Positions 15,185 through 54,492 are shown, counted from the first letter of the stretch. The stretch is DNA of 64,000 nucleotides from Rhodospirillaceae bacterium (GCA_018660465.1 JABJKH010000008.1:74398-138397), one strand, 5' to 3'. A program made the numbers and translations. The notes: generated from the sequence alone by a model not told the origin.

Positions 15185-17350
15185 ATGGGCCGCATCGCAA
15201 GCTTAGCCACAAGTAATCTGCTGATTAACCAGCTTTTAGCAACGCAAAAGCGAATCACAGAAACCTCGTTCCAGGTTAATACGGAAAAGGTATCCCGGGA
15301 TTATACAGGACTTGATAAAGTCGCCGAACGGTTGATCAACTTTGAGACGCTCAGCAACTCGTTAGAAAGTTTCATTTCAGGAAATGAGCAGGTGGAAACA
15401 CGGCTTGATACAATTAATGCCTCTATTGAGGGAGCGAGAGACACGCTCTTGGAATTCCGCAACGCCTTGGTCGACTTCAACACCTTTGGCGGCAACCAAG
15501 AGCAACAAGTCAGAGACATCCAAGATATTGCCTTTAAGTCATTACAAACATTACAAAGTTTCCTAAATACCAGCGTCAACGGAAATTTTCAATTTGGTGG
15601 TACCCGCGCAGATGTCGCCCCAATTAACATTGGATCGAGCACATTGACGGACTACCAAAACAGGTTTGACGGGCAGCGCGTGACCTATCCGACGACCCGA
15701 GAGGCGCAACTTGCTCAGTTTACAATCAATAAAGACGTCGCTGACGAAAAAACCAATTTTCTAACTTTCCAAAGAGACGACGGCACCACGCCACCGGTCG
15801 GGCGTATTACGGCGACGGGTACAAATAACTTTGCGAATGTCAAAGTTGGCACGACGATAGTGGTAACCGGCACGGGAAACAGCGGCCTGAATGACGGCAC
15901 CTATACGGTCAAGGGCATCGATTCGACCAATGGTCAGTTTATCACGGTTGAAACGACAATGCTTACCGATGAGGCGGCAGGAGGCAGCGTAACCCTGACA
16001 TTACCGGATGGGTCTACAGTTCAATCATCGTCAATAACCTTTAATCGTGCAAATGATACGATTACTTCAAGTGTACTTGGCGAACTTGCGTCCATTCCGG
16101 TAGGGACGACCATTACAGTGAGCGATACAACCAATAACAACGGAAGATTTACGGTTGAGGCTAACACTGGCGCGGTCATCACGATCGCGGACCAGAAACT
16201 CACCGACCAGGGCACGGTCGCCGCACCGCTTCTCAGCTTTACCAATGCTGGCACGGTGACGTTTACGAACAATACAGCCCCTACAAAGGACACCATCGGG
16301 TCCGGCGTTCCGGGTTCATTCAGCGAACTACGCGCTGGCATGAAAGTGGTTATTGCCAGCGCGACGGCTGGCGCAAACAACCAAACAGTTACGGTGTCTT
16401 CCGTTAGTGCTGACGGCAGTACAATTACGGTTGATGAAAATGTTACGGCCGCCGCAGACGTAGCTGCCCTAACCATGACGACCCAGCAAACCGGTGGAAC
16501 GATCACGGCCTTGCCCTTTTTCAGTGGTGATACCCGTGCCACCACCCACAGAGTCAGCGATCGCCAGAGCTTCGAAGTGGATATCACTGCAGCAGACCCG
16601 GCTTTTGAAAAAGCCTTCCGCGCGATGTCTCTTATCGCCCAAGGTCAGTTCGGTACGGCGGGTGGTTTGGATCAGAATACCGAGCGTGTCGGCCAATCCC
16701 TCTTTCTCCTCGCCAGTGCGCTCGACAACAGTTCCAACGCAAATGTGACCGCAGTTGCGCAGGTAAACACAGTTGATTTCACGGCTGCTACCCTGGGCAC
16801 GACGGGCGACACACATACGGTGACCATTAATACGGTGCCGGCGGGAACCGCTGTTGCCGTAACTGTTCCCGGTGGTGGAACGTTAACTGCAATTACGGCT
16901 GCCATGACCACAGCTATCAACAATAACGCCTCGGTTAACAGTCTGGTAAAGGCGACGGCGAATGGCACAGTCTTGACTTTGACGGCGGCAACACCTGGTG
17001 TTGGCTTCTCATCCTCTTCATCGACCAACCTAGCGACTGCTGCGGTTGATAGTGTGACTACCACGAACGTCGCATCGTTGACTGTGGGCTCGCCGCCATT
17101 CGGCGCAGAACAAGTCAGCAACCTTGAACAACTGCAACGCGCCGTTGGTTTTGATCAGGTGCTTCTGGATCGGGTTAACCAAGGCCATGAGACGCTTAAA
17201 GGTTTCATCGATGTACGCATTTCATCGTTTGAGAACATTAATCAAGCAGACGCAATCACGCGACTATTAGACGATTCACGAGCCCTTGAAGTTTCTTTCC
17301 AGGTGCTCGGGCGGGTTCGTGATTTATCGCTGGCTAACTTCCTCCGTTAG
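15185..17350 (+). CDS. flgL: Flagellar hook-associated protein 3 FlgL (unusually large, 721 aa)
   Basis: Flagellin-family termini are present: N-terminal ...TSNLLINQLLATQKRITETSFQVNTEKVSRDY and C-terminal ...ITRLLDDSRALEVSFQVLGRVRDLSLANFLR. The gene sits directly after flgK. It contains a 3x internal repeat (15830-16453) and one IN-motif module (16805-17011). Confidence 0.8.
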   Translation: MGRIASLATSNLLINQLLATQKRITETSFQVNTEKVSRDYTGLDKVAERLINFETLSNSLESFISGNEQVETRLDTINASIEGARDTLLEFRNALVDFNTFGGNQEQQVRDIQDIAFKSLQTLQSFLNTSVNGNFQFGGTRADVAPINIGSSTLTDYQNRFDGQRVTYPTTREAQLAQFTINKDVADEKTNFLTFQRDDGTTPPVGRITATGTNNFANVKVGTTIVVTGTGNSGLNDGTYTVKGIDSTNGQFITVETTMLTDEAAGGSVTLTLPDGSTVQSSSITFNRANDTITSSVLGELASIPVGTTITVSDTTNNNGRFTVEANTGAVITIADQKLTDQGTVAAPLLSFTNAGTVTFTNNTAPTKDTIGSGVPGSFSELRAGMKVVIASATAGANNQTVTVSSVSADGSTITVDENVTAAADVAALTMTTQQTGGTITALPFFSGDTRATTHRVSDRQSFEVDITAADPAFEKAFRAMSLIAQGQFGTAGGLDQNTERVGQSLFLLASALDNSSNANVTAVAQVNTVDFTAATLGTTGDTHTVTINTVPAGTAVAVTVPGGGTLTAITAAMTTAINNNASVNSLVKATANGTVLTLTAATPGVGFSSSSSTNLATAAVDSVTTTNVASLTVGSPPFGAEQVSNLEQLQRAVGFDQVLLDRVNQGHETLKGFIDVRISSFENINQADAITRLLDDSRALEVSFQVLGRVRDLSLANFLR

Positions 17351-17578
17351 GTATTTGTTTACGACATTTAGTGCACAATCATACCAATGTGCTGCTTAGA
17401 ATAAGCAACCATCCACAAAACAATGGGAAGAACAGAGGACTCAACAATAACACCCCCGAAATGGCATTCTTGCGGGCAGAATTGAATTCCCCTAGAATGG
17501 TCCAAAGACAGTAATTTCTGTCGCTGGCACCCATAAGGTTATAGGTTGAGAACGCCTCAGAGCCAAATTGGAGAAACC

Positions 17579-18076
17579 ATGTCCCCTTACGGTAAACATA
17601 CACAAAAATACGAACGCGTTCCGGAGCCAGGTTCGCCACGGCAAACTGAAGGTTGGGCCTTGAATGAAGCTGCCAAACGTATGGCAGCAGCGATTACACT
17701 AGGGGACGTTTCTGATCACGATGTAAAAGCCAAGAGAAAATCGGCTGTCAAATTAAATTGGAAACTTTGGACAATTTTTCAGGCGGAATTAACACTCGAA
17801 GACTCGGGAATGGATGAAGAAATTCGACGTAACATGCTGACGCTGTGTAAATTTGTCGATAAACACACTATTGGCACCCTTGTTGAACCGACAGATTCAA
17901 AAATGAGCACCCTAATCGACCTAAACCGCAACATTGCTTTGGGTTTATTGCAGATGCCTGCCGATGAAGTTGACGCAATGGAAAAGGCTCGCGAAGCGGA
18001 GAAGCATGAGAATGCTAATGAGGATGATAAGCAAGGGGATGGGGCTCCCCATCAAAAGCTCGAGATCAATATTTGA
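17579..18076 (+). CDS. flaF: Flagellar biosynthesis regulator FlaF
   Basis: ...RQTEGWALNEAAKRM...AVKLNWKLWTIFQAEL...EIRRNMLTLCKFVDKHT matches the FlaF family pattern. The start is set at ATG 17579 (GGAG 6 nt upstream), not the TTG at 17546. Confidence 0.75.
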   Translation: MSPYGKHTQKYERVPEPGSPRQTEGWALNEAAKRMAAAITLGDVSDHDVKAKRKSAVKLNWKLWTIFQAELTLEDSGMDEEIRRNMLTLCKFVDKHTIGTLVEPTDSKMSTLIDLNRNIALGLLQMPADEVDAMEKAREAEKHENANEDDKQGDGAPHQKLEINI

Positions 18077-18231
18077 CGCGTGCAATGCCTCAAAGATTTC
18101 AAGTGTGAATTCGGTGCGCCCCCCCTCGTTAAACATCGACTTCCAAAAATGGTTTTCCCCGTTAGATAACACGCTTCGGATATCCAGCTTGGTTGTGCCC
18201 TTTATTGCGTGTTGGAATGTAGGCAGAATTT

Positions 18232-20274
18232 ATGAGTGACGATACAATCTCAGAACAAAAGCCCGAGGCCTCCCCGGAACCGTCGACTCCTGAACCAGAG
18301 ACTTATGCTCCGACGGTACTCCATGCTCAGATAGGGTCGGATGCCGATAAGCAGTTCTATGTGTCCGTTGCAAAAATTCTCGTCGAATTATTAACCTTAG
18401 ACGCGGTTGAATTGGCTGATTCAATATCGGAATTATTTAAGGAGAGAGACAACACGGCAGAAGGGTTTTGCCTTCTTGGATTGGTTTCTTGGAGATTGGC
18501 AGACAACGGTAAAGCCATTCAGTTATTAACGACAGCCCATGAATTGGCCCCCGATTGTCGAGATTATGTAGACGCATTGGCTACAATTCACACCCAGGTC
18601 GGAAATTTATCGGATGGGTTATACTATGCGAAGCTCGCAACCGCACTTGAACCTCATGAATACATTCATCCATTTCTTCCACCAGGGCTGTCCAACTATT
18701 TCACTGCACTATCAAGCACGTCGCCTTCAGGGCACTATGTGAACGGCCTCGTTAGATATAACCAAAGGCAGTTTGAGGCCGCAATAACTGAGTTGGAGGC
18801 GGAACTCGAACTCAACAATAATCATTATGAATGCCTTACTTTGTATGGAAAATGCCTGCATGAACTTGGTCGTTATGATGAAGCGATAATCGCGTTGCAA
18901 AAGGCAACCAAGATTAAACCGGATGGCGCGGAGCCGTTCATTGAAATGGGAAATTCCCTGTATCGCTTGGGATTATTCAAAGATGCCGTGACCTCGCACC
19001 TAACAGCATTAGAATTGGACCGAAGCATAGAAATCTGTGCCGCCGCCGCAGACGGAGTTAAATATCTCGGATCGGAATATGAGAGCGAAAGAAATAATCT
19101 AAATTCCCTCACCAACGAAATTTTTGACGAGATCGAGGTCTACCCGCCCAGAGAGCCACGCGGAGTAAAGTCCAATCCAGACATCATCCATATAGGCTAT
19201 ATTATAAATTCAATTTATCAGGGGGACTACTACCCATTATTTGAACCAATTTTACGGCATCACGACCACACAAAATTTAAGGTATTCGTCTACCAATTAT
19301 CGGTCACGGAAGATGCTTTATTCACACTCATCAAGAACCACGCTAATTCGACTCGGCAAGTTTATGATATCGATCCGGAAACGCTCGCCGTGATAGTTAG
19401 AAATGACCGCTTGGACGCCGTCGTGGACTTAACCGGATATAGCAATGGACAACAATATACTCTTCTTAAACAAGGCATCACTCCTGTTCAAATTGGACAC
19501 CTCCGATACCCATTTGGCATCACGTCGCCTGGAACAAATTTTGTAATTTCAGATAAGACTACGGCTGAAATGGACCAAAAGGAAATACCGGAAGGCGTAA
19601 AAAATATCGTCATGGATCACGGTCTATATGCAATTGATCCGCTTAATAATTTCCCTGATCCAGTGTCGGCTCCCGCAGTAAAAAATGGATTCGTTACTTT
19701 CGGAGGAAAGAGTGATCTCGCGACCCTTACGCCTAATCTTGCAAGGCTTTGGGCCGAAGTATTACGTGCGGTTCCAGACTCCCGGCTATCTCTGGGCGGT
19801 ACCGCGAAGCAATGCGACTACGCAAAAACACGAATCCACGAAATGTTCGATAATGAAGGCGTCGCGGACCGTGTTACAATCTTAGAACCGGAGCAAGCGA
19901 ATCCGGTTACAGATGTTAGCTTCTACAACAGCATCGATATCTATTTGGATAGCTTTCCAAACTCAGGCTCCAATATTATTATCGAGGCATTATGGATGGG
20001 GATTCCAGCGATTACTTTAGCGGGAGAGCAACGTTCCTCGCTTCTTGCAGCGTCCATCCTAAGCGCTGCAAATAAAGCAGAATGGATATCAAATTCAGAA
20101 GATCAATACGTAGAGTTGGTAGTGGAATTATCGAAAGACGGCAAATCACTCAGTAAAATTCGGAAGTCCTTGCGTCCAGAATTAGAAGAATCCAGCCTAT
20201 TCGATACGGCAGCACACACCAGAGCCTGGGAAAATGCAATTGAAAGCTGTATAAAACAATCCGAAGCCGGTTGA
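18232..20274 (+). CDS. TPR-repeat protein fused to a GT41 (SPY/OGT-like) glycosyltransferase domain; FlmG-like candidate flagellin glycosyltransferase
   Basis: The N-terminal roughly 290 aa carry TPR repeats (...YGKCLHELGRYDEAIIALQKATKIKPDGAEPFIEMGNSLYRLGLFKDAV...). The C-terminal region has ...DIYLDSFPNSGSNIIIEALWMGIPAITLAGE..., characteristic of the OGT/SPY C-terminal catalytic domain. The architecture equals Caulobacter FlmG. Confidence 0.65.
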   Translation: MSDDTISEQKPEASPEPSTPEPETYAPTVLHAQIGSDADKQFYVSVAKILVELLTLDAVELADSISELFKERDNTAEGFCLLGLVSWRLADNGKAIQLLTTAHELAPDCRDYVDALATIHTQVGNLSDGLYYAKLATALEPHEYIHPFLPPGLSNYFTALSSTSPSGHYVNGLVRYNQRQFEAAITELEAELELNNNHYECLTLYGKCLHELGRYDEAIIALQKATKIKPDGAEPFIEMGNSLYRLGLFKDAVTSHLTALELDRSIEICAAAADGVKYLGSEYESERNNLNSLTNEIFDEIEVYPPREPRGVKSNPDIIHIGYIINSIYQGDYYPLFEPILRHHDHTKFKVFVYQLSVTEDALFTLIKNHANSTRQVYDIDPETLAVIVRNDRLDAVVDLTGYSNGQQYTLLKQGITPVQIGHLRYPFGITSPGTNFVISDKTTAEMDQKEIPEGVKNIVMDHGLYAIDPLNNFPDPVSAPAVKNGFVTFGGKSDLATLTPNLARLWAEVLRAVPDSRLSLGGTAKQCDYAKTRIHEMFDNEGVADRVTILEPEQANPVTDVSFYNSIDIYLDSFPNSGSNIIIEALWMGIPAITLAGEQRSSLLAASILSAANKAEWISNSEDQYVELVVELSKDGKSLSKIRKSLRPELEESSLFDTAAHTRAWENAIESCIKQSEAG

Positions 20275-20290
20275 AATCCCCATTAATTAA

Positions 20291-22273
20291 CTATCCTGGC
20301 AAAGCATTATCTGCACTAGCTTCAGCTCCTGCCTCCGCTATGTTTTCTTTATTTAAGCTGCCGAGTTCCTTCAGCGCGTCTTCTCGCAGCTTTTCAATCA
20401 TAACTTGAACTTCTTCCTTAACGATTTCGGTAAATTTCGGTAACTTTTCCGGCTCGGTTATACGTTTCGTGTAATACGCTATCGAAATTATCATTTGGAA
20501 CAATGTCCCTCTGATGAGAGTAATAACGCCTCGATCCATCCGGCTTGGCCAAACTCCCGTATCGAAGACGAGCACTTTATTCAAATCAATTTGGTAGAAG
20601 TTATCGGACACATCCTCAACGCCATCAAAAATTTCAGATATTGTATCCATTACCGAATCCACGCTGTTCTCGAACTCTTTTTCATCCCAATATTCGCTAA
20701 ATTTTTCTTCGGTATAAACCGGCATTTTGTCATATATTTTCTGAAGGAGATCCTTTTTGCTAAGTAGAAACTCTGGGAGATCAATTTTCTCCGGCAATAT
20801 TGGTAATGTATTGGGAATATAGGCACCATCGCTACAGTTGTAATATCGTCGGCCACGCGTTTTCTTTAAAATTGCTGCCTCAAGGTGATCAAGCGATTCC
20901 AGCAACCCCTTCGACGTAAAGAAATCTCCACCAAAGTTCGACGTAACTGGGATGTCAAAGATTTGGTCTACATGCAGTGCATCCTCAGTATACTGATAGG
21001 CATCCTTTGAGTGGTGGCGCGCTTGGTCAATCGTGCCGCAATCGACCCCAAAAAAGTAAAAGTCTTTAAATCCTAATTCCTGAGCAAATGAAAACGACGC
21101 ATTCACCACAGTATTGTGCGGGCGTTCAAGGGTAGAAGCCTTGTCATCAAAATAAATAGGGAACGGGGATAAACTCGCGCGAGAATAATAGATGATATTA
21201 TCAAAATACTTGGTCACTGTCGGATCAACCGTCGTCGCGGCAACATACAGGATAGAAGATAAATCGTACTTTTCAGCAACTTGGTCTACAGTTAGATCGA
21301 CATTGAGATTTTCTTGTTCCAGATGCATATCTGGCAAAATTCCATTGAAGACAAGAGGGCGTAGCGATGTCCCCGCCGAAATAATAAAAGCGCGGTCAGC
21401 GTTTTTCTTAATCATAGGAAGGCACGCATCCAAAGAGGGGCCACTGCCAACGACAAAGACCGGGATGTCAGCCGGAAACATCTCATTTGGGCGTTGATAG
21501 TATTTTGATTCTCCCGAACATAAATTTACATGGCAATTTTTCAGCATAAGTGTTTCGTCGTAGAAAAAACCTAGGCTGGTCGCAATCAAATTCACATCCC
21601 GGGCGAGCTTTTGAAAGGCTTCATCCAAAATAGCGTTTTTTTGATGCATAATAATCGACACACCATCGACACCACCAATATTGCTGCCTCGGATAAATAA
21701 TCGGGCATATATGCCAATCTGATCCGGCGAAGTATCTATTACGAATTTGATGCGCCCATTACGAGACGTTATGAGCTCATCAAGTTTTTCCCAGTCGTAA
21801 ACTTCTAATGAATGATATAAAAACTCGTAGTTCACATCAGCAAATACAATTGCGGAACAATTCGTTCTTTCGACGATTTCATCGATATGAAGACCAAGAC
21901 CAATACCAAAGACTACGACTGTAAATGCATTATCGGAAACTATTCTACGGTGGTAGGAAATATCCTCTTTGTCTGCCCGTAAAAGAATATTAAAGAGGGT
22001 GGGACCAGCATAATCATCCATGCCGTCAGTTTGGGGCGGATTAATTTCTACCCGTGTCGGCAAAGCCCACGTCTTCTCAAGCTGATTTTTGGCAAATTCT
22101 GCCGCTTTGTTATTGTAATAATACTGGCCATCAAACCACACGTCGGGTTCGCCATCTTCGTCAATTCTTAGTTCCGAAATTGGTTTGTAGTCTTTGAGAG
22201 CGGCATAAATTTCCGGGTATATCGCCTCAAACATTTCCAAGTTATTTTTGCGAAGCTCTTCACGATCCACCAT
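20291..22273 (-). CDS. maf: Motility-associated factor (Maf, DUF115/MptE-like) glycosyltransferase family protein
   Basis: 660 aa. N-terminal ...RKNNLEMFEAIYPEIYAALKDY and central ...VFVVGSGPSLD... match the Maf family. SD GAAGGA is present. The gene lies beside the flagellin gene. Confidence 0.75.
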   Translation of the reverse strand: MVDREELRKNNLEMFEAIYPEIYAALKDYKPISELRIDEDGEPDVWFDGQYYYNNKAAEFAKNQLEKTWALPTRVEINPPQTDGMDDYAGPTLFNILLRADKEDISYHRRIVSDNAFTVVVFGIGLGLHIDEIVERTNCSAIVFADVNYEFLYHSLEVYDWEKLDELITSRNGRIKFVIDTSPDQIGIYARLFIRGSNIGGVDGVSIIMHQKNAILDEAFQKLARDVNLIATSLGFFYDETLMLKNCHVNLCSGESKYYQRPNEMFPADIPVFVVGSGPSLDACLPMIKKNADRAFIISAGTSLRPLVFNGILPDMHLEQENLNVDLTVDQVAEKYDLSSILYVAATTVDPTVTKYFDNIIYYSRASLSPFPIYFDDKASTLERPHNTVVNASFSFAQELGFKDFYFFGVDCGTIDQARHHSKDAYQYTEDALHVDQIFDIPVTSNFGGDFFTSKGLLESLDHLEAAILKKTRGRRYYNCSDGAYIPNTLPILPEKIDLPEFLLSKKDLLQKIYDKMPVYTEEKFSEYWDEKEFENSVDSVMDTISEIFDGVEDVSDNFYQIDLNKVLVFDTGVWPSRMDRGVITLIRGTLFQMIISIAYYTKRITEPEKLPKFTEIVKEEVQVMIEKLREDALKELGSLNKENIAEAGAEASADNALPG

Positions 22274-22414
22274 GGTCGGTCCTTCTTAGTCGGGCTCAAA
22301 ATTCGAGTTATATTTAAAGTATTTAGAATAACGATTAAAGAGTTTCACATATTATTCTAAAATTCTAATGCAATTTTTATTAAAATTAAATAAATAGAGC
22401 GTAAAATCTAACGA

Positions 22415-22442
22415 TAAAGTTTTCAACAGTATTGATCGACAA
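22415..22442 (+). promoter_or_regulatory. Candidate sigma-28 (FliA)-type promoter
   Basis: TAAAGTTT-N11/12-gATCGACAA compares with the enteric consensus TAAAGTTT-N11-GCCGATAA. The -35 is perfect and the CGA core is present. It is 74 nt upstream of the 273-aa ORF. Confidence 0.35.
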
Positions 22443-22515
22443 CTAATTGATTTAAAAGATTTTTTATGGTACTGTTAAGAACTTAAAATGCTCACTCTGG
22501 ACATGGTTTAATTTC

Positions 22516-23337
22516 ATGGCGCCCGTCAGTTTTGGACAAACATTTTCTCAGATAACGGCCAACGCCGCAGCGCCGGCGTTCGAGCTACAATTCAGCCAAA
22601 TTCAGAACACGCTCATCCGACGTTTGAACGGTGAAATCGATAAATTGTCTGACGACCCGATTACGGACATTAAATTGCGGCGATTAAGAACTGAGGGGCA
22701 GAAATTAATTGATGCTCAGCCGGTTGTTGAGGATTTTCTTCAAAAGACGCGTAACTCGCTTATCGCAGTTCAGGGCATTTCGGATGATTTAAGTAATTTG
22801 AATGATCTTTTGGGGGCTGACGATAACGTTACCCAAGCAGAGGTTGATGCATTTGTCGCCCAACGTGATGCAATAGGTGAGCGAATTAATAACCTATTTA
22901 TTTTCAGCAATGTTGATATCCCTAATTTCGACGCGGTAAAATTGTTTAAGGATCAGCTGGAAGATTTTCAGGCGCTTACACCTGTCGTTGGAACGAAGTC
23001 CGTAGACAATGCGGCTGTCACCGCGGGCGTGTCCGATCTTACGGCCCGGTCCTTTAACGCCGAAGCACTCATTGCGATTACGGTCGAGCAGGCCGTTGAT
23101 GTGAGCCTCAATATTCAGCGAGATTTCATTGGCGTTGATAGCGATATTCTTGTGCTTGAAACGTCAGCTTTTGCAGAGAAACAAACGGAAATCGATAATC
23201 TAAAAGCTGATGCGGCGAATCTTTTGCAAATATTTTCACTCGCATTTGACGCCCAGGCTAAGTTTGCGCAGAACATCGCAGATTCGCTCCGGCCCCAGAC
23301 TCCTGCGCCAGGCTCCGTACTTAATCTTTTCGCCTAG
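22516..23337 (+). CDS. Uncharacterised flagellar-locus protein (273 aa, acidic, Cys/Trp/His/Tyr-free)
   Basis: This long ORF lies between maf and the flagellin gene. Its composition resembles exported axial proteins, and its C-terminus ...PGSVLNLFA echoes the flagellin C-terminus ...QGILSLFR. I see no obvious SD and recognise no family. Confidence 0.55.
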   Translation: MAPVSFGQTFSQITANAAAPAFELQFSQIQNTLIRRLNGEIDKLSDDPITDIKLRRLRTEGQKLIDAQPVVEDFLQKTRNSLIAVQGISDDLSNLNDLLGADDNVTQAEVDAFVAQRDAIGERINNLFIFSNVDIPNFDAVKLFKDQLEDFQALTPVVGTKSVDNAAVTAGVSDLTARSFNAEALIAITVEQAVDVSLNIQRDFIGVDSDILVLETSAFAEKQTEIDNLKADAANLLQIFSLAFDAQAKFAQNIADSLRPQTPAPGSVLNLFA

Positions 23338-23547
23338 AACATCTTAAAATTTAAGGGAAATTGCGCGTGATATTCACGTAATGATTACCCGCGCTTATCT
23401 TATCCAAGACTCCCATACAATGACCTATAGTGATTGCGTAATACGCACGACCGAATAGCCTCGTCCCCACCTTACGATGCCTAGTGGAATTTGCTGCATT
23501 GTTAATCCAGAGTCTTTGTATTAGCGGCCTTCGCGACACGCTTTAAT

Positions 23548-23583
23548 AAAAAAAATCCCGCCGCAGTCGAAACTACGGCGGGA
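23548..23583 (-). terminator. Rho-independent terminator of the flagellin gene (possibly bidirectional)
   Basis: The minus strand reads CCCGCCGtagtttcgactgCGGCGGGattttttttatt. It lies 65 nt downstream of the flagellin stop. Confidence 0.8.
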
Positions 23584-23648
23584 AAATTTTCGAAAGGTTT
23601 GGAAAACTAAATTAGAAATTTTCCAAACAATCTTACCTAACTTAGGGC

Positions 23649-24827
23649 CTATCTGAACAAGCTCAGAATTCCCTGTTCGGCCTGACCAGCAAATGCCAGG
23701 GCGGAAATACCCAGCTGCTGTCTGGTTTGCAGGGCCAACAGGTTGGCACCTTCTTCGTTGATGTCCGCCAACGTTAGTTTGGCTGCACCACCAGCAAGGT
23801 TGTTCACATACTGTTCTGTGAAATCCAACCGAGTTTGTAGCAATGCAACGTTCGAACCCAGGGTCTGAGCATTAGACCGGAGAGTTGTCAACGCGTCATC
23901 CAACTGCGTGATCGCGGTATCGACCTGCGTCGTGTTTCCTTCAGCGATGAAGTTGTCATTATTACCCGCAATGCTATCGACGGTAAGCTCGGTCGATGAG
24001 ACCGTAAGAGAACCAAAGAACACGTTGGAAGCAAGAGTATCGATAGACGCTGTGTTTGCATTACCAATCAACGTAACCGATAAAACATCGCCCTGACTAA
24101 GCGTTTCACTTCCGCCGCCACTACCACCGACACCAAGAAGGATGGACAGTGTTCCGAAGGTAATCGTCGGACCAGCCGCCGTTACACCGCCAGCAGTAAT
24201 TCCGACGCCCGTACCTTGATACGTTACCGTAATTACAGTACCTGCAGCACCCGTATTCAATGCCAAGCTGGTAACGCCGGAGAAGTTAAACGACGTGTTC
24301 GAAGCCGCAACAGCCTGTCCGATGTCAAGACCAGTTTCGGAAATGTTCACGCCATCAATGGCCAGAGAACTTGCAGTTTCCTGACTGAAGCTCACCGCCA
24401 ATTGCTCGGTCGTGGCATTAACAAGGTTTACGCCCTGGAAGGAAGTATCTTCCGTCAACGTTCCGATTTGCGTACGCAGACTGTTAAACTGCGTAATTAG
24501 ATCTGTAAACTGTGTTCCTGTAGCGGACTTAAGGCTACCGGCAACACCTTTGATCTGACGCACGATGCTTTCAACAGCCTCGATGCCGCCAAGAGCCGTT
24601 TCAACCGTACTAATACCCTGGTCAATTGCGTCTTTCTTTTCGCCGAAGTCGAAAGCACGATCAGACAAGGTCTTTGCTTGGAAGAATGAGACTGGATCGT
24701 CAGTTGCAGCAGCAACCCGCAAACCAGTAGAGAGTCGACCCTGAGTGGTGTCAATTAACCGAGTCGTATCTTTGAGAGAGAGCAGGCTATCACGCACTGC
24801 AGTTGATAGTGTTACTTCTGAAGCCAT
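23649..24827 (-). CDS. Flagellin
   Basis: 392 aa. N-terminal ...LSTAVRDSLLSLKDTTRLIDTTQGRLSTGLRVAAATDDP and C-terminal ...DINEEGANLLALQTRQQLGISALAFAGQAEQGILSLFR are flagellin D0/D1 helices. The central region is Ser/Thr/Gly-rich. SD AGGAG lies 8 nt upstream. Confidence 0.9.
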   Translation of the reverse strand: MASEVTLSTAVRDSLLSLKDTTRLIDTTQGRLSTGLRVAAATDDPVSFFQAKTLSDRAFDFGEKKDAIDQGISTVETALGGIEAVESIVRQIKGVAGSLKSATGTQFTDLITQFNSLRTQIGTLTEDTSFQGVNLVNATTEQLAVSFSQETASSLAIDGVNISETGLDIGQAVAASNTSFNFSGVTSLALNTGAAGTVITVTYQGTGVGITAGGVTAAGPTITFGTLSILLGVGGSGGGSETLSQGDVLSVTLIGNANTASIDTLASNVFFGSLTVSSTELTVDSIAGNNDNFIAEGNTTQVDTAITQLDDALTTLRSNAQTLGSNVALLQTRLDFTEQYVNNLAGGAAKLTLADINEEGANLLALQTRQQLGISALAFAGQAEQGILSLFR

Positions 24828-24858
24828 TTTGGTTTCTCCTTTCTAGAGAAAATATTTC

Positions 24859-24876
24859 CAAGGCATTTTTGCCTTG
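24859..24876 (-). promoter_or_regulatory. Stem-loop in the flagellin 5' leader
   Basis: The minus strand reads CAAGGCA-aaaa-TGCCTTG, a 7-bp stem with a 4-nt loop. It lies 32-49 nt upstream of the flagellin ATG, and an alternative pairing with the preceding CCAAG is possible. Confidence 0.4.
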
Positions 24877-25110
24877 CACTTGGTGTCACAAACAAAGTTA
24901 AAGCGTTTCTCGCTTTCACCAAGCTCTCGCATACTAACAAATTAGATTTCAATGTAAAGAAGTTTTTTCTTAACAAATCCTTACCGGGAGCACGGCCCCA
25001 GGAATTAGCTATATTTCAAATATATGGGCATTTGACATATAGGTAACTCAAGAGTGTATGTTATACATCTATTTAGTGAAATATTCTATAAAATCAGCAG
25101 GTAATCAGTC

Positions 25111-25563
25111 GTGCCACTTAAATTAGACTTAAAAACCGGTATTCGCTTGGTCATCAATGGGGCGGTGATTGAGAACATCGGCCCAAATACAAAACTCTTG
25201 GTTCACAATGAATCGTCGATTTTACGTGAGAAAGAGATTTTATCGGCCGACGATTCGGCAACACCGGCATCTAGAGCCTACTTTGCGCTTCAATGCGCCT
25301 ATATGTTCCCTCAGGAAAAGGAGAAATACTTAGATTTATTCCTGCCGCTCTTGAACGACTATACCCAAGCCCTGCCCAGTTCGGCTGAAATTGGCGTCGA
25401 TATAAAGGCGGCCCTGGATGAGGGCAAACTATATAAGGCACTAAAAGGGGCTCAGGATTTGGTCCGCCATGAAGCCAAGATTGTCGAGGATATGCGCCAT
25501 ACCGCCGAAGAAGAAACCGGGGAATACCTGCCAGAGGCTGGCGACGATATCGGAAATAGATAG
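25111..25563 (+). CDS. flbT: Flagellar biosynthesis repressor FlbT
   Basis: MPLKLDLKTGIRLVINGAVIENIGPNTKLLVHNESSILREKEIL... is the characteristic FlbT N-terminus. The gene has a GTG start and is divergent from the flagellin gene. Confidence 0.8.
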   Translation: MPLKLDLKTGIRLVINGAVIENIGPNTKLLVHNESSILREKEILSADDSATPASRAYFALQCAYMFPQEKEKYLDLFLPLLNDYTQALPSSAEIGVDIKAALDEGKLYKALKGAQDLVRHEAKIVEDMRHTAEEETGEYLPEAGDDIGNR

Positions 25564-25579
25564 GAAGATAGATAAATTG

Positions 25580-26650
25580 CTAGCCTGACGGGACTAATTT
25601 TCCCAATTCTTCCGCCACAGTTTTGATCGTTTCATCCCACTCAAACCTTTGCGTTGACCGAAAAAGTCGGGCTGACGGATACCAAGGCGTCTTCTCCCCT
25701 TCCAGCATATACGGCCAATAAGGGACTTTCACGACCATTACCCACACCGGAATTCCCATAGAGCCCGCCAAGTGTGCAATCGCAGTATCAACGGTTATAA
25801 CCAAGTCCATGCAGGCCATAGCCGCCACGACATCAACGAATATGTCTTTACCATTGAGTTCCGGCCCCAAGTGTTCAAATGGCCAGTTGCCATCGACATC
25901 CGCAACCTGATCCTCTCCCGCGCCAACCTGAAGCCCATAAAATTGCGCGCCCTCAACACCCATCAGAGGTGCCATCTCCTTTAGAGGTATTGAACGTTCG
26001 GCATCACGGATTTGATCCGGATTACCTTGCCAACATATCCCGACCTTAAATTTCCCCTGCAATCGAGTTTGCCATTTCTTTTTTAAGGCCGGATCGGCAG
26101 AGAAAACATTGCTATCTGGAATGGAATCAAGGGTCGTATTGAAAACTGCTGGCAAACTCAATGAGTGAAGATGAAAATCGATGACATCCAAGGGAATAGG
26201 CTCGCCATCCTCAATTATGATCAACTCTGGGAAAGCCGCCTGAAACAACCGACGTCCTCCCACGGGGGCCGCGAACATTACTTTTCCAACACGTTCTAAC
26301 GCCAACGGAAAATAACGTGCTGACATGAACACGTCTCCAAACCCTTGGTCTCTATGAATTAGAAGTGTCGATTCTTTAGCCGGACTCCCATCCCAATAGG
26401 GTATCGGAAATTGCGTTACTTTCTTTGCAAGGTACGCCTGCATTTCAAGCCTGCGCTGGAACAGGGGCCACGCTTCTTCGTAATCCCCCTTCAGAAGTTT
26501 AAAACTTGCATATTCATAAAGTCCCTCCGGGAATGCGGGTCGGCGCCTCTCAAATTGCTTAAAAATACTCTCAGCCATAAAAAAATCGCCTGCCCACATA
26601 AGTTCAAGCGCGCGATTGACGGATTGAAGCAATAATTGCATTTCATGCAT
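25580..26650 (-). CDS. GT9 (heptosyltransferase-fold)-like protein with a short TPR-like N-terminus
   Basis: 356 aa with ...LLIHRDQGFGDVFMSARYFP..., ...VGICWQGNP... and ...MDLVITVDTAIAHLAGSMGIPVWVMV...WYPSARLFRS. It is a paralogue of the C-terminal half of the 60554-62134 protein. Confidence 0.55.
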   Translation of the reverse strand: MHEMQLLLQSVNRALELMWAGDFFMAESIFKQFERRRPAFPEGLYEYASFKLLKGDYEEAWPLFQRRLEMQAYLAKKVTQFPIPYWDGSPAKESTLLIHRDQGFGDVFMSARYFPLALERVGKVMFAAPVGGRRLFQAAFPELIIIEDGEPIPLDVIDFHLHSLSLPAVFNTTLDSIPDSNVFSADPALKKKWQTRLQGKFKVGICWQGNPDQIRDAERSIPLKEMAPLMGVEGAQFYGLQVGAGEDQVADVDGNWPFEHLGPELNGKDIFVDVVAAMACMDLVITVDTAIAHLAGSMGIPVWVMVVKVPYWPYMLEGEKTPWYPSARLFRSTQRFEWDETIKTVAEELGKLVPSG

Positions 26651-26769: not shown

Positions 26770-27783
26770 GTGAAACTCGGCAGTTTTAACACGAATGCTG
26801 AAGTCCTGATTATCGCCGAGATCGGTAATAATCATGAAGGTGATTTCGATCTCGCCCGTCGGTTGATTGACGAAGCGGCGGAAGCCGGAGTCCAGGCCGT
26901 AAAGTTTCAGACTTTTATTCCGGAGCACTATTCGAGCCAACTAGACTCAGACAGAATCGCAAAACTTAAGGGATTCCAGCTGAGCTTTGAACAGTTCGAG
27001 CAACTGGCTGATCATGCCAGAAAAGCCGGGCAGATGTTCATCTCGACTCCCTTCGATCTTGAGAGCGCGCGATTCTTAGGCGGCCTTGCCGATGGCATCA
27101 AAATCGCCTCAGGCGACAACACGTTCGGCCCGCTGATCAAGACCGTCGCTGAAACCAACAAGCCGATGATCGTGTCGACAGGGCTTGCCGATACCGCGCA
27201 AGTTCAAAACGCTGCCAAGCTTATTCAAGACACTTGGGATGCAAATGGATGCACAGCAGACTTGGCGATCCTGCACTGTGTCGCGAGTTATCCGGTGCCA
27301 CCGAAGGAAGCGAACCTGGCCGCGATTCCCATCCTGGCCGCCGCCTTAAACAATGTCACCATCGGTTATTCTGACCATACGTTAGGCGTGGACGCTCCTG
27401 TCCTGGCAGTGGCCTTAGGCGCGCGCATTGTCGAAAAACACTTCACCATCGACAACAATTATTCAGACTTCCGCGACCACCAAGTCTCTGCCAACCCCGA
27501 AACCCTGAAGGAAATGGTCAAGCGGATTAAGGATACAGAGGTATTCTTAGGCTCCGGTGCGATCGGCATGGAAGACTGCGAACAGCCCATAGAAGCCGCC
27601 ATCCGACGTTCCATCGTCGCCGCCCATAACTTGGCTGCGGGCCATAAGATTCTAGATACGGACATCACCTGGGTACGCCCCGGCGGCGGCATTCCGCCCG
27701 GAGAAGAAGATCGCGTGTTGGGCAAAGAGCTAACCCGCGCGATTAAGCCCGGCGAAATGATTTTGTCTGAAGATTTGGCGTAA
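26770..27783 (+). CDS. Nonulosonic acid synthase (NeuB/PseI/LegI family)
   Basis: ...VLIIAEIGNNHEGDFDLARRLIDEAAEAGVQAVKFQTF... plus a C-terminal SAF domain (...ITWVRPGGGIPPGE...IKPGEMILSEDL). GTG start. Sugar specificity is not resolvable by eye. Confidence 0.85.
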   Translation: MKLGSFNTNAEVLIIAEIGNNHEGDFDLARRLIDEAAEAGVQAVKFQTFIPEHYSSQLDSDRIAKLKGFQLSFEQFEQLADHARKAGQMFISTPFDLESARFLGGLADGIKIASGDNTFGPLIKTVAETNKPMIVSTGLADTAQVQNAAKLIQDTWDANGCTADLAILHCVASYPVPPKEANLAAIPILAAALNNVTIGYSDHTLGVDAPVLAVALGARIVEKHFTIDNNYSDFRDHQVSANPETLKEMVKRIKDTEVFLGSGAIGMEDCEQPIEAAIRRSIVAAHNLAAGHKILDTDITWVRPGGGIPPGEEDRVLGKELTRAIKPGEMILSEDLA

Positions 27784-29422: not shown

Positions 29423-31267
29423 ATGTGTGGAATAGCGGGCAGCATTGGCCCCACCCTTCCCGGTCGCGATCAAATAAATGCGACCCTTGCGGCACTCGAC
29501 AATCGCGGGCCGGATGCCAATGGTTACTACACCGCTGAGGTCGGCGGCAATCAAGTCTGCCTGATCCACACTCGACTTTCCATTATCGACCTCGACCCCC
29601 GCGCCAATCAGCCTTTTGAGCGCGAAAACTTAGTCCTTGTTTACAATGGAGAGGTTTATAATTACCTCGAAATCCGTTCAGAGCTCGAAATTCTCGGCCA
29701 TAAATTCAGTACAAATTCTGATACCGAAGTTGTCCTTAAATCTTACCAAGAATGGGGCTCAGCCTGCTTTGAGCGGTTCGAAGGCATGTGGGCATTGGCG
29801 ATCCTGGACACCCAAAAAGGCACGGTTATGCTTAGCCGCGACCGCTTTGGTGAGAAGCCTCTATATACATGGGCAGTTGCGGGCACTCTTTATTTCGCTT
29901 CAGGAATCAAAGCCTTAGCCGCACTGAGTGGACTCACGCCAAAAATCAACCAGGACCAAGTAACGCGCTACCTGGTCAACGGCTATAAATTTTTATTCAA
30001 AAAAAATGCACCGGGTTTTTTCGAAAATATCGATGAATTTCCTGCGGCACATTATGCCGAACTCAGCGGCCCAAATATGCCCGACCCCCAGCGTTATTGG
30101 CAACTCACCTACGCTCCAGAATTAATGACAATGGACGACGCGATTGAAGGTGCCAGAGAGCGATTATTTAAATCAGTTGAACTTCGCCTTCGGGCGGATG
30201 TCCCCCTCGCCTTCTGCCTTAGTGGCGGAATTGATTCGTGCACGCTTGCGGGAATCGCGGCCAAACATTTCAACCACGATATCCATTGCTTCTCCGTAAT
30301 CGACAGTGACGAGCGCTACGACGAACGGGACAACATCCGAACTATGGTCGATCACATGGGGTGCGAGCACTTCGAGCTTCACACCTCCACCGATGGCTTC
30401 TTTGAACGGATGGAACGCTTGGTAAACGATCATGACTCGCCGGTAGGAACCATCAGCTATTACGTTCATTCGTTCCTCTCCGAAGCCATTCATGACCAAG
30501 GCTATAAAATTGCCGTTTCGGGGACGGCGGCGGATGAACTGTTCACGGGTTACTATGATCACTATTCCATGTGGTTAGCGTATATGAAGGCAAATACGGA
30601 TGCTGATTTCGAGCAATTGGTGGATGACTGGAAGAACAGCTACGGCGCGGTCGTTAACAATCCGAAACTCCAGGACCCGCTTGCCTTTCTGAAAAATCCC
30701 GACCAACGCGACCACATTCTCTTGGATACAGGCCTGTTCGAATCGTTTCTAAGCCGTGATCAATATGAAAACTGGCATGAAGACTGGTCAGAAGAGACCT
30801 ACTGCGACGACCTGCTGCGCAACCGCATGATGAACGAACTGTTTCATGAATCCGTGCCGTTTATCCTGAACGAAGACGACGCCAATTCCATGGCCTGGTC
30901 AGTGGAAAATCGCTCACCTTATCTAGATCGGGATTTGGCCGAATTTATGTACACGGTCCCCAATGATCACCTGATCCAGGATGGCTACGCCAAGTGGTTG
31001 TTGCGCGAAGCCGGGAAGGACGTATTGCCAGACGCCATTCGCCAATACAAACGCAAGCACGGCTTTAACGCCTCCATCGATTCCCTGGTTGATCGCAATG
31101 ACGCAGAGACCCGAGACCGCCTGCTGAGCGACAGCCCAATCTTCGATATCGTAGACCGATCAGCGATTGAGAGGTTCTTAGACGGATCAATGGAGAGCAA
31201 CAGTTTCAGCAAATTTCTCTTCAGCTTCATATCGGCAAAATTGTTTCTTGAGAGTTCGTCCGCATGA
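29423..31267 (+). CDS. asnB: Asparagine synthase (glutamine-hydrolysing)-like amidotransferase
   Basis: N-terminal nucleophile MCGIAG and PP-loop LSGGIDSCT, 614 aa. Its island context suggests a sugar-modifying (PseA-like) role rather than Asn synthesis. Confidence 0.8.
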   Translation: MCGIAGSIGPTLPGRDQINATLAALDNRGPDANGYYTAEVGGNQVCLIHTRLSIIDLDPRANQPFERENLVLVYNGEVYNYLEIRSELEILGHKFSTNSDTEVVLKSYQEWGSACFERFEGMWALAILDTQKGTVMLSRDRFGEKPLYTWAVAGTLYFASGIKALAALSGLTPKINQDQVTRYLVNGYKFLFKKNAPGFFENIDEFPAAHYAELSGPNMPDPQRYWQLTYAPELMTMDDAIEGARERLFKSVELRLRADVPLAFCLSGGIDSCTLAGIAAKHFNHDIHCFSVIDSDERYDERDNIRTMVDHMGCEHFELHTSTDGFFERMERLVNDHDSPVGTISYYVHSFLSEAIHDQGYKIAVSGTAADELFTGYYDHYSMWLAYMKANTDADFEQLVDDWKNSYGAVVNNPKLQDPLAFLKNPDQRDHILLDTGLFESFLSRDQYENWHEDWSEETYCDDLLRNRMMNELFHESVPFILNEDDANSMAWSVENRSPYLDRDLAEFMYTVPNDHLIQDGYAKWLLREAGKDVLPDAIRQYKRKHGFNASIDSLVDRNDAETRDRLLSDSPIFDIVDRSAIERFLDGSMESNSFSKFLFSFISAKLFLESSSA

Positions 31268-31968
31268 AAACCGTTGCCGTCATTCAAGCGCGCTATACAT
31301 CGACCCGATTGCCGGGCAAGGTCTTAATGAATCTCGCAGGAAAACCCGTGCTCACCCATATTATTGATCGATTGCGCGCGGTTGAGGCAATTGACGAAAT
31401 TTGCCTTTCCATCCCAGATGGCGACGCGCAACAGCCCCTGCTCGACTTCGCAGCAACCGTTGACGGGCTGACCGTTTCTAGCGGGCCTGATGAAGACCTG
31501 ATCCGCCGCTTCGCGAATGCGGTAGAAGAAACTGGGGCCGATACCGTTGTCCGTGCCTGGGCAGATTGCCCCGCGGTTAACCCGACCAGCACTGCCGCCC
31601 TTATCGCCGCGTTCCACAATGAAAATGTCGCTTATGCTGAAATCCCCAATGATAGTGGTTACCCGGAAGGCTTTGAGGTGCATGTTCTCTCGGCAGCCAC
31701 AATCAGGACGGTCGATGCCGGCGCAACCGACCCGTTTGACCGAGAAGCCATCATTCCGTTTCTAACCCGTTACCCGAAGCGCTTTTCGTGCCTGCGCCTG
31801 AACAGGTCGCCTTCGCGCAACGATATAAAACTACTTTTGGACACACCGGAAGATTATGAGAAACTAAAAAAGATCTTCGATGTGCTGTATCCAAAGAACC
31901 CTCTCTTTGGATTGACGGAAATTGAGGGCCTGGGTGATGAGTTCCTAAAAAATTTGGAGACGGCTTAG
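31264..31968 (+). CDS. Cytidylyltransferase (SpsF/acylneuraminate cytidylyltransferase family)
   Basis: MKTVAVIQARYTSTRLPGKVLMNLAGKPVL... is the CTP_transf_3 N-terminal signature. The start overlaps the asnB-like stop by 4 nt. Confidence 0.75.
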   Translation: MKTVAVIQARYTSTRLPGKVLMNLAGKPVLTHIIDRLRAVEAIDEICLSIPDGDAQQPLLDFAATVDGLTVSSGPDEDLIRRFANAVEETGADTVVRAWADCPAVNPTSTAALIAAFHNENVAYAEIPNDSGYPEGFEVHVLSAATIRTVDAGATDPFDREAIIPFLTRYPKRFSCLRLNRSPSRNDIKLLLDTPEDYEKLKKIFDVLYPKNPLFGLTEIEGLGDEFLKNLETA

Positions 31969-31969
31969 C

Positions 31970-34126
31970 ATGGGGCGCTCAAAATTACGGAAGAAAAAAA
32001 AGACCCCGCAGGGTAGTTCGATCAACCTTGTGAAGACACTCGAAGAAACCATTGCGCATTATAAGGCTGGGCGTCTTGTAGAATGCCTTCAGGGATGCCG
32101 CAAAATCCTCACGGTCGACAAGCATAACCCAAATATATTTAAACTTGCTGGAGATCTGGAAGCTAAAGTCGGTGATCCTATCCAGGCAGAGGACTATCTA
32201 AACGCCGCCGTTAAGTTTGCTCCCCGGGACGCCGATGCTCATTACCTGCTGGCCGGCGCTCAAATGACGAATGGCCGGATTGAAAACGCCATCAAAAGTT
32301 ATAATTCGGCGCTTCAAATTAGACCGGACTATATTGAGGCCTACAATAACCTAGCAATAGCCGAGATGAGCATGGGTGATTACGAGTCTGCCCAAGGCAG
32401 TCTCCAGAGCTTGATAGGACTAAAGCCAGATCACGCAACGGCACACTATAATCTTGGCTCAATCTTTATGCGTCAGGACCGTATAATTGATGCGATCCAG
32501 TCCGTGCGCCAAGCCATAAGATACGCGCCTGATGAGCAAAATTACTGGGGGTATCTGATACATCTGTACAACATGCTCCCCGACATCGAACTTGATGATG
32601 AGATGAAGGGTGACGTGGCCTCCATCATTACATCGCATGACCTTAGCCTCGCGCCGATCACGGCCCTAGCTTGTAAGTTTATCCTAAACGATCCGGAAGT
32701 AAGGAAATTGATCGCCAAGGCAACGGCGTCGATTGATACCTTTGCCATTGAGGAATGGCTATCCGACGAAACTCTAAACGCACTCAGCCAACCCATCATA
32801 CAATCTTATGTCGCCCGGGCGCGATTGATAGAAGTTGGTTTTGAACGCGTGTTAACGAACGTCCGACGGGCGATTCTTTTAAGTTCGAACGGCCCCCCGA
32901 TAAACATTGATTTATTATCCGCAATTGCAGACCAGTGCTTTTACAATGAATATGTCTTCCTCATTTCAGATGAAGAGGCCAATGCACTTATCCGCTTAGA
33001 GCAACACATGACATCAACTCTGGCGGACGGCGACAAACTTCAACCCGAAGAAATTGCCATTTATGCATCCTACAAGGCGCTGTTTAAATTGCCGGGTTTC
33101 AGTAAAAACGTCGCTAAAGATCACGCTCTCCTCCATCCTGACGTGTCCGGTTTAATTCAGCACCAAATTCTCGAACCGCTTTCTGAGCGAGAGATAATTA
33201 TTGAAATCCCCAGCATCTCTGAGATTTCAGATCAGGTTTCGCAGAAAGTCCGCGCACAATATGAAGAAAATCCGTTTCCCCGCTGGCGCAATTTTGAAAA
33301 ATCCGTTGTCGTTAGCCTGAAACATTACCTCAAGAACATGTTTAATGTCGGAGAGGAAGGCGACGAATTTCCATCATCCCCCCGCATCTTAGTTGCAGGA
33401 TGTGGAACTGGGCGCCACCCCATAGCCGTGGCACAAACCATCGAAAAATGTCATGTTTTAGCCGTCGACTTAAGTCAGGCAAGCATTGCGTATGGATGGC
33501 GAAAAGCCCGTGAATACGAGGTAAAGAACATTGAATTCAAGCATGGGGATATATTGAGTTTGGGGGAGTTACAGACTGAATTCGATATGATCGAATGCAG
33601 CGGTGTCCTGCATCATATGGAGAATCCTGAAGCGGGCTGGAAAGTTCTCACCGGGCTTCTTTCGCCATCAGGCTATATGAAGGTAGGTCTCTATAGTGAA
33701 CTGGCGCGCCAAAATGTGGTGGTGGCAGCCCGGTCATTCATCGCAGAACGCGGCATTCCCTCGACGATCGAAGGGATCAGAGAATTTAGAAAATTGGTGT
33801 TTGAGATGCCCGACGACCACCCCGTAAAATCGGTTGTTTCCTACCTTGATTTCTTCACGGCGTCAGACTGCAGGGACCTGTTGTTTCACGTTCAGGAACA
33901 CAGGTTTACAATTTCGCGGATAAGGACAGCCCTGGCTAACTTAAATTTAGAATTTTGCGGATTTCATTTTGCTGGCCAAAATACCGAAATAGCAGCGTAC
34001 AAAGAGGCCTATCCCGATGACCCCAGTTGTTTATCTCTTGATAACTGGGAAGCCTTTGAGGACAAAAACCCCAACACCTTCGCCGCGATGTATAACTTCT
34101 TCGTGAGAAAGGCACCCGCTAATTGA
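31970..34126 (+). CDS. TPR-repeat / class I SAM-dependent methyltransferase fusion protein
   Basis: The N-terminal roughly 200 aa carry TPR repeats (...AIKSYNSALQIRPDYIEAYNNLAIAEMSMGDYESAQGSLQSLIGLKPDHATAHYNLG...). The C-terminal part has ILVAGCGTGRHPI...DMIECSGVLHHMENP (motifs I and post-II of class I methyltransferases). Confidence 0.75.
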   Translation: MGRSKLRKKKKTPQGSSINLVKTLEETIAHYKAGRLVECLQGCRKILTVDKHNPNIFKLAGDLEAKVGDPIQAEDYLNAAVKFAPRDADAHYLLAGAQMTNGRIENAIKSYNSALQIRPDYIEAYNNLAIAEMSMGDYESAQGSLQSLIGLKPDHATAHYNLGSIFMRQDRIIDAIQSVRQAIRYAPDEQNYWGYLIHLYNMLPDIELDDEMKGDVASIITSHDLSLAPITALACKFILNDPEVRKLIAKATASIDTFAIEEWLSDETLNALSQPIIQSYVARARLIEVGFERVLTNVRRAILLSSNGPPINIDLLSAIADQCFYNEYVFLISDEEANALIRLEQHMTSTLADGDKLQPEEIAIYASYKALFKLPGFSKNVAKDHALLHPDVSGLIQHQILEPLSEREIIIEIPSISEISDQVSQKVRAQYEENPFPRWRNFEKSVVVSLKHYLKNMFNVGEEGDEFPSSPRILVAGCGTGRHPIAVAQTIEKCHVLAVDLSQASIAYGWRKAREYEVKNIEFKHGDILSLGELQTEFDMIECSGVLHHMENPEAGWKVLTGLLSPSGYMKVGLYSELARQNVVVAARSFIAERGIPSTIEGIREFRKLVFEMPDDHPVKSVVSYLDFFTASDCRDLLFHVQEHRFTISRIRTALANLNLEFCGFHFAGQNTEIAAYKEAYPDDPSCLSLDNWEAFEDKNPNTFAAMYNFFVRKAPAN

Positions 34127-38141: not shown

Positions 38142-38144
38142 GCC

Positions 38145-38891: not shown

Positions 38892-38913
38892 CAAAATACA
38901 GAAAGTTCGCTCC

Positions 38914-42224: not shown

Positions 42225-42237
42225 ACTTGAACTTCAC

Positions 42238-42362: not shown

Positions 42363-42389
42363 GCGGCACAGACAGGCGTTCTAGGAAAG

Positions 42390-44002: not shown

Positions 44003-44016
44003 ATTTTCTCCTGTCT

Positions 44017-45858: not shown

Positions 45859-45860
45859 GG

Positions 45861-47294: not shown

Positions 47295-47295
47295 T

Positions 47296-48012: not shown

Positions 48013-48013
48013 C

Positions 48014-54484: not shown

Positions 54485-54492
54485 CCTTTCAT

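Follow-up and report, generated by a model that had tools for sequence, protein, structure and literature searches.

We analysed a 64,000-nucleotide (nt) stretch of DNA from a Rhodospirillaceae bacterium (hereafter the window), in which two neighbouring genes code for putative flagellin glycosyltransferases. The first, A, codes for a protein with tetratricopeptide repeats (TPR) and a GT41 domain, and the second, B, for a member of the Maf family. An earlier note on this DNA had taken A for a FlmG-like enzyme and had proposed that the two proteins add different sugars to flagellin, with the remark that the systems described so far use one type or the other. Our analysis indicates instead that A and maf form a conserved module and that A is predicted to keep the GT41 fold after loss of the canonical donor site. 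From the maf linkage, the GT41 fold, the loss of the donor site and the fact that the A family is most conserved in a TPR-like region, we infer, giving it about an even chance, that A serves the Maf machinery as an accessory or acceptor-recognition subunit and is not an independent transferase of the OGT/SPINDLY (SPY) type.

The arrangement itself was found as described before: the TPR-GT41 open reading frame (ORF) and the maf ORF are 16 nt apart, and since this gap (bases 20275-20290) is bounded by the stop codons of both, the two genes are convergent. All ORF coordinates refer to the whole window and are counted from its first letter (Table 1). Profile hidden Markov model (HMM) searches bore out the family assignments as well, with GT41 and TPR matches for A and Maf/DUF115 matches for B above the Pfam cut-offs. 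Because FlgE, FlgI, FlgK, FlaF, FlbT and NeuB are encoded around the pair (Pfam), the locus can be recognised as flagellar, and A and B sit in an alphaproteobacterial flagellar and nonulosonic-acid island.

B reached 138.9 bits with Maf_flag10_N (cut-off 23.5) and 93.4 bits with MptE-like/DUF115 (cut-off 34.6); its Maf_C score stayed under the Pfam cut-off. Residues 6-627 aligned full-length with the structure of the Maf protein of Magnetospirillum magneticum AMB-1 (5mu5_A, E = 1.8e-86), and all of the 52 columns that are invariant among seven Mafs, that of AMB-1 included, are kept in B (e.g., G278-P279-S280, D315, E321, D411 and H421). A protein 100% identical to B has been named as the Maf of a Rhodospirillaceae metagenome-assembled genome. 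By homology, B is an orthodox Maf, that is, a flagellin nonulosonic-acid glycosyltransferase. It resembles the AMB-1 protein in its three-part layout and in the type of locus, at about 31% identity, although in AMB-1 maf and the A homologue overlap in the same direction whereas in the window they converge.

The linkage between A and maf was assessed from both sides. Six divergent homologues of A, with 24-53% identity, were all located in flagellin loci, five of them directly adjoining maf, in orientations that vary between loci and often with overlapping reading frames, even though identity among the homologues is only 20-53%. A scan of metagenomes with the A-family alignment provided 68 more loci. 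Counts were restricted to the 30 loci in which the A homologue had 2.5 kb or more of flanking DNA on either side; some of these loci are near-duplicates of each other. Among the 30, maf was found at 450 bp or less from the A homologue in 19, within the 8-10 kb flank in a further ten, and not at all in one. One of these ten (L006) is adjacent according to the gene calls, which brings the figures to 20 of 30 adjacent and 29 of 30 with maf in the flank. From the Maf side, an A homologue was adjacent or one gene away in five out of six sampled Maf homologues, namely those of AMB-1, Magnetovibrio sp. PR-2, Terasakiella sp. A23 and two metagenomic genomes. AMB-1 is the source of the 5mu5 Maf; there, maf overlaps by 8 nt an A homologue that is 27% identical to A (E = 3e-61) and is directly followed by a TPR-less gene of the FlmG type. 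The sixth Maf belongs to a subgroup of homologues with a C-terminal SEC-C motif (PF02810); this sampled representative (L157:8001-10091) lies in a non-flagellar neighbourhood without an A homologue, so that it may have a different substrate. The linkage of A to maf is tight and ancient, and the pair is a conserved module of Rhodospirillales-type flagellin loci. Far from being exceptional, the pairing is the usual arrangement in the clade, AMB-1 included, and the window is an ordinary member of it. No description of a Maf-linked family with a GT41 fold was found in the literature searched, which did not take in the first paper on AMB-1 Maf or a review from 2022. When the A-family profile was run against 1.84 billion representatives, the top 150 matches were giant multi-repeat TPR/GT41 proteins, and this search was therefore uninformative on Maf-A fusions and on the size of the family.

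Several results point to a genuine GT41 fold in A. Its Glyco_transf_41 match (PF13844) scored 82.5 bits against a cut-off of 25, several TPR families matched at residues ~160-250, and residues 180-656 aligned to Arabidopsis SPY with E ~1e-50 (HMMER); alignments were also obtained with the OGTs of Thermobaculum (TtOGT), human and Xanthomonas (XcOGT). The AlphaFold2 model of A had a pLDDT (per-residue confidence) of 82.1 and a pTM (confidence in the overall fold) of 0.70. Its best Foldseek matches in the PDB were SPY (E ~1e-30), TtOGT, human OGT and XcOGT, with a TM-score of 0.84 to TtOGT, normalised to the target. According to the model and the alignments, A has a true GT41 fold in which a TPR superhelix is followed by a two-lobed GT-B domain, the same order as in SPY and in human and bacterial OGT (7y4i, 5djs, 3pe3, 2vsn). 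The strongest conservation in the A family lies not in the catalytic cleft but in an N-terminal TPR-like block (residues ~90-150) with the motif GLYYAKLA, where H103, G124, L130, Y131, A133, K134, L135 and P150 are conserved in at least 90% of the members.

The donor site was examined in the 48 members that remained at <90% identity out of 59 near-full-length A-family proteins taken from the loci, with 19 further bacterial GT41 proteins, recovered in the same search, as controls. In SPY, N661, K665 and T748 bind the phosphates of guanosine diphosphate, mutation of K665 abolishes activity, H495A and H495F are dead, and mutants in S496, Y744 and T748 show strongly reduced activity (PMC9715652). 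At the equivalent positions, A has S for N661, T for K665 (K842 in human OGT), G for H495 (H558 in human OGT), D for S496, N for Y744 and D for H728, and T747-T749 is replaced by S-N-I, with N for T748. Not a single K was present in the K665 column of the 48 members (R in 21-22, H in 10, A in 5 and T in 3, with T or V in the subclade of the window), nor a single H in the H495 column. The controls, counted over the sequences aligned in each column, keep D491 in 14/18, H495 in 16/18, N661 in 17/18, K665 in 17/18, Y744 in 14/19, T748 in 17/19 and T749 in 16/19. Unlike in other GT41 enzymes, the equivalents of N661, K665, T748, Y744, H495 and S496 are all replaced in A and are not conserved within its family. 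Judged from these alignments, the canonical GT41 donor site is lost, and this loss is specific to the A family. Since the donor-binding residues are absent, the current annotation of A-family genes as protein O-GlcNAc transferases is probably wrong.

These data have to be weighed against the possibility that A is an active transferase, as the earlier note supposed, but with a re-tooled GT41 site, which would add a second sugar, extend the sugar added by Maf or modify other Ser/Thr sites, and which in one variant would use a cytidine monophosphate (CMP)-activated nonulosonate, a donor with a single phosphate. In its favour, the confident structural model shows an intact fold, purifying selection acts on the C-terminal domain, and GT41 genes have been predicted to code for flagellin glycosyltransferases in enterobacterial islands (PMC4875605). 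Moreover, at one locus (L004) the A homologue adjoins NeuB and there is no maf in 14 kb. About two thirds of the family carry R or H in the K665 column, although T or V takes this place in the subclade of the window. On the other hand, A has replacements for all SPY/OGT residues of demonstrated importance in donor binding or catalysis, and when the per-sequence signatures of the 48 members were searched for a fixed alternative set of cleft residues, none was found, while working families normally keep fixed polar residues in the cleft. We consider a re-tooled active site rather unlikely, but the main competitor.

The same explanation would be consistent with the duplicated aminotransferase, cytidylyltransferase and oxidoreductase genes of the island (Table 1), from which two different flagellin sugars had been deduced in the earlier note. 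The duplicates are real, but the window contains only one NeuB-type synthase, and this, together with the lack of GT41 donor and catalytic residues in A, weakens the deduction of two enzymes and two sugars; duplicated genes with a single NeuB neither support the two-sugar idea nor rule it out. The NeuB-family protein reached neither the NeuB nor the PseI cut-off of NCBIfam, and none of the sugar-pathway enzymes of the window reached an equivalog cut-off when NCBIfam was used to distinguish pseudaminic from legionaminic acid synthesis. The enterobacterial islands are similar to the window in that GT41-family genes lie inside flagellin glycosylation islands; compared by their description, however, those genes are the sole glycosyltransferase family reported per island and are mostly fused to a methyltransferase (PMC4875605), whereas A accompanies Maf and FlmG-type genes.

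As an accessory subunit, A would share one pathway with Maf. The conserved TPR-like block near its N terminus (residues ~90-150) would bind flagellin, Maf or both, and A would present the acceptor flagellin to Maf and perhaps to the nearby-encoded TPR-less FlmG-type enzyme as well, with Maf, the FlmG-type enzymes or both transferring the NeuB-derived CMP-sugar. An inactive protein acting on behalf of a partner is not without precedent: in the glycosylation of streptococcal serine-rich adhesins by GtfA/GtfB, an inactive GT-B-fold protein binds the acceptor and activates its partner O-glycosyltransferase. The families of these proteins and of A/Maf are unrelated, and the resemblance is one of analogy only.

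Among Maf systems, the flagellin-binding determinant of AMB-1 Maf is reportedly not evident (bioRxiv 10.1101/2022.03.25.485807), and the AMB-1 Maf structure revealed no part that binds flagellin. For Maf systems in general, a later preprint suspects that a component is missing (bioRxiv 10.1101/2023.12.03.569772). The same preprint describes for Shewanella oneidensis a Maf-1 with a fused C-terminal TPR and a three-part system of Maf-2 and GlfM, which shows that a Maf may need a flagellin-binding module, fused or separate, in cis. A is TPR-bearing and is encoded beside a Maf that itself has no TPR, and it would take the role that GlfM has for Maf-2 and the fused TPR for Maf-1. It differs from both modules in being a separate 680-aa GT41-fold protein, whereas GlfM is a four-helix bundle of 89 aa and the Maf-1 TPR is fused. 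There is no ORF of at least 80 aa between maf and its neighbours (A and the 273-aa ORF) that could represent a small GlfM-like gene (~89 aa).

Several observations speak against A as an accessory subunit. Some Mafs glycosylate flagellin without any partner, namely Maf-1, and the Mafs of Clostridium botulinum and Geobacillus in E. coli. At two loci (L004 and L145), the A homologue is found with no maf in the DNA seen, and no Maf-A fusion was detected when the A-family HMM was run against the 120 closest Maf homologues. In roughly two thirds of the family, an R or H takes the place of K665 and could still bind a phosphate. The GT41 domain of the A family is still constrained, being about as conserved as the remaining TPR region, and this constraint would fit a re-tooled active site too.

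A different view would place A outside flagellin glycosylation: with FlaF and FlbT it would, for example, regulate the synthesis or export of flagellin, or it would modify another flagellar protein. Both in the window and in many relatives, A is the gene directly downstream of flaF, and Listeria GmaR, a flagellin glycosyltransferase that doubles as a regulator, offers a precedent. GmaR has been cited as a bifunctional O-GlcNAc transferase (PMC7591256). However, the linkage of A to maf persists where flaF lies elsewhere (L002, L005, L106-L119), and the sequence of A indicates no regulatory domain, so that we regard such a role as very improbable.

The label FlmG-like did not hold for A. A FljK sequence, identical to PDB 6xl0, was used to fetch the flagellin locus of Caulobacter vibrioides (L007), in which a 596-aa ORF lies 2.3 kb from fljK and adjoins a GNAT gene; in Pfam it matches TPR only, with no GT41 domain. 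Published FlmG has 596 residues, with a domain of TPRs at its N terminus and a GT-B domain at its C terminus (PMC7591256), a description which this ORF fits, and we have taken it as FlmG. BLASTP of FlmG against A revealed no similarity (best E = 1.8), and together with the lack of a GT41 domain in FlmG this led us to discard A as a candidate. What the two have in common is an N-terminal TPR, which is generic, a C-terminal GT-B plan and a flagellar locus, whereas the catalytic domain is GT9-like in FlmG and GT41 in A.

Two other genes of the window do match FlmG. The product of the first aligned over 504 aa, across both domains, with 24% identity (BLASTP, E = 1e-30); it shows TPRs and a weak Glyco_transf_9 match in Pfam, and its homologue is kept on the same contigs as the closest relatives of A and Maf. 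The GNAT acetyltransferase encoded beside it belongs to the same Pfam family as the GNAT beside the Caulobacter ORF (BLASTP, E = 3e-8), an arrangement which resembles that of flmH beside flmG. The second gene codes for a stand-alone domain which matches residues 255-596 of FlmG (BLASTP, E = 2e-25), with a weak Glyco_transf_9 match and no TPR match; with only 356 aa and no TPR, it lacks the flagellin-binding half. In AMB-1, the gene next after the A homologue shares 34% identity with this second gene (E = 6e-54). With 24-28% identity to Caulobacter FlmG, the two genes are FlmG homologues only, and this low identity leaves their orthology to FlmG unproven. A homologue search with the two-domain protein gave an output dominated by generic TPR proteins, without any match named FlmG. 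Similar FlmG-type genes were seen in Magnetovibrio, in Terasakiella (two in tandem) and in AMB-1.

Since FlmG matches these two genes and not A, Maf and the FlmG type do co-occur in the window, but through genes other than those first thought. By sequence, the island holds three unrelated glycosyltransferase families: Maf, the A family and the FlmG type. In two preprints, Maf-type and FlmG-type enzymes are described as alternatives (bioRxiv 10.1101/2022.03.25.485807; 10.1101/2023.12.03.569772), and FlmG is described as confined to Caulobacterales in the second (bioRxiv 10.1101/2023.12.03.569772). The view that a system uses one type or the other, also put forward in the earlier note, agrees with the characterised systems in the literature searched but not with genomes, where both occur together. 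FlmG homologues outside Caulobacterales and beside Maf are in conflict with a picture of alternatives with separate distributions.

The presence of a TPR-less FlmG-type gene raises the possibility that A supplies the half of a split FlmG that binds flagellin and that its partner is mainly this enzyme and not Maf. In AMB-1, maf is followed by the A homologue and then by a TPR-less FlmG-type gene, in frames that abut or overlap, and L120-L122 share this order; in addition, the catalytic domain of Caulobacter FlmG alone neither binds flagellin nor functions (PMC7591256). However, in the window the TPR-less gene is 5 kb away from A and has the opposite orientation. A FlmG-type gene was present in 18 of the 30 A loci, often in the order A, maf, FlmG-type, as compared with maf in 29, so that the link to maf is tighter and more general, and many of the linked FlmG-type genes have a TPR domain of their own. 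A split FlmG is, in our opinion, improbable.

Table 1. Position of the genes discussed in the 64,000-nt window.
Feature	Position	Strand	Basis
FlaF, flagellin secretion chaperone, directly 5' of A	17546-18076	+	Pfam FlaF, 74.4 bits
A, TPR and GT41-fold protein, 680 aa, ATG start	18232-20274	+	ORF listing, Pfam
B, Maf, 660 aa, ATG start	20291-22273	-	ORF listing, Pfam
Conserved protein, 273 aa, divergent from maf	22516-23337	+	ORF listing
Flagellin, 392 aa, presumed acceptor	23649-24827	-	Pfam Flagellin_N and Flagellin_C
FlbT, regulator of flagellin translation	25111-25563	+	Pfam FlbT, 110 bits
Stand-alone FlmG-type GT-B domain, GT9-like, 356 aa	25580-26650	-	BLASTP to FlmG C-terminal domain
NeuB-family nonulosonic acid synthase	26770-27783	+	Pfam NeuB, 224.5 bits, and SAF
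CTP_transf_3 (three genes)	31264-31968; 54415-55884; 57143-57883		Pfam
GFO/IDH/MocA (two genes)	34123-35139; 57880-58902		Pfam
DegT aminotransferase (two genes)	35079-36296; 55860-57146		Pfam
GNAT acetyltransferase adjoining the FlmG-like gene	60031-60567	+	Pfam Acetyltransf_3
FlmG homologue, TPR and FlmG-type GT-B	60512-62134	+	BLASTP to Caulobacter FlmG

In the immediate surroundings of the pair, flaF lies just 5' of the A homologue in many related loci. The flagellin gene is near the pair, at about 1.4 kb from the start of maf, but not strictly next to it as had been described, since the 273-aa ORF lies in between. No significant match to this ORF was found in sequence searches of Pfam, NCBIfam and the PDB; homologues of 268-284 aa are present in the flagellin loci L005, L153, L155, L156 and L158, and an HMM of the family did not match any ORF of the Caulobacter flagellin locus. 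In a scan for promoters and terminators between 17300 and 25200, the 16-nt gap was empty, and the counts were close to those expected from shuffled sequence. The G+C content was 0.42-0.475 over A, maf, the 273-aa ORF and the flagellin gene (18001-26000), compared to about 0.50-0.53 on both sides. Identity to the closest relative was 53% for A, 62% for Maf and 82% for the FlmG-like gene, A being less conserved than its neighbours. Upstream, FlgK is directly followed by a 721-aa ORF without a Pfam match (15185-17350, +), at the place expected for FlgL; this place is filled by a 1074-aa gene in L156 (998-4222) and by a 396-aa gene in L005.

Beyond the flagellar genes, the island continues with a long run of sugar-modification genes. 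Two of them code for enzymes fused to TPR, a 718-aa methyltransferase (31970-34126, +) and a 387-aa 2-oxoglutarate-Fe(II) oxygenase (40101-41264, -), and AMB-1 also has a TPR-methyltransferase (L153:8725-10098); it may be that TPR serves these enzymes as a common module for targeting to flagellin. HisH-like, HisF-like and WbuX-family genes (the latter with 338 bits, above the cut-off) are located at 37527-40023 (+), and this amidotransferase trio is expected to make an acetamidino group on the sugar; in L004, HisH- and HisF-like genes lie beside an unannotated 417-aa gene. The block 41370-50978 comprises aminoglycoside N-acetyltransferase-like, AMP-binding, FkbH-like, methyltransferase, SDR, metallo-beta-lactamase, KAS III and MaoC-SDR genes, a content that suggests a flagellin sugar with an unusual acyl or glyceryl substituent. 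A similar set of N-acetyltransferase, AMP-binding, PP-binding and FkbH genes was observed beside FlbT in L156. A DUF4910/DUF2172 aminopeptidase-like gene recurs in the window (50980-52332, -), in L002 (12138-13550) and in L154 (1-957), in L002 directly after the A homologue.

As to how Maf chooses its flagellin substrate, a conserved, TPR-bearing and often translationally coupled partner is a specific candidate. With some reserve, and at slightly less than an even chance, we propose that a GT41-fold protein without the canonical donor site provides acceptor specificity or a scaffold to Magnetospirillum-type Mafs and perhaps to TPR-less FlmG-type enzymes. AMB-1 is genetically tractable and hosts for heterologous reconstitution exist, so that this role can be put to the test. 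If true, A would represent a third solution to flagellin recognition, besides the TPR fused to Maf-1 and the adaptor GlfM used by Maf-2, and flagellin glycosylation in Rhodospirillales would be carried out by a multi-protein machine built from three unrelated glycosyltransferase folds.

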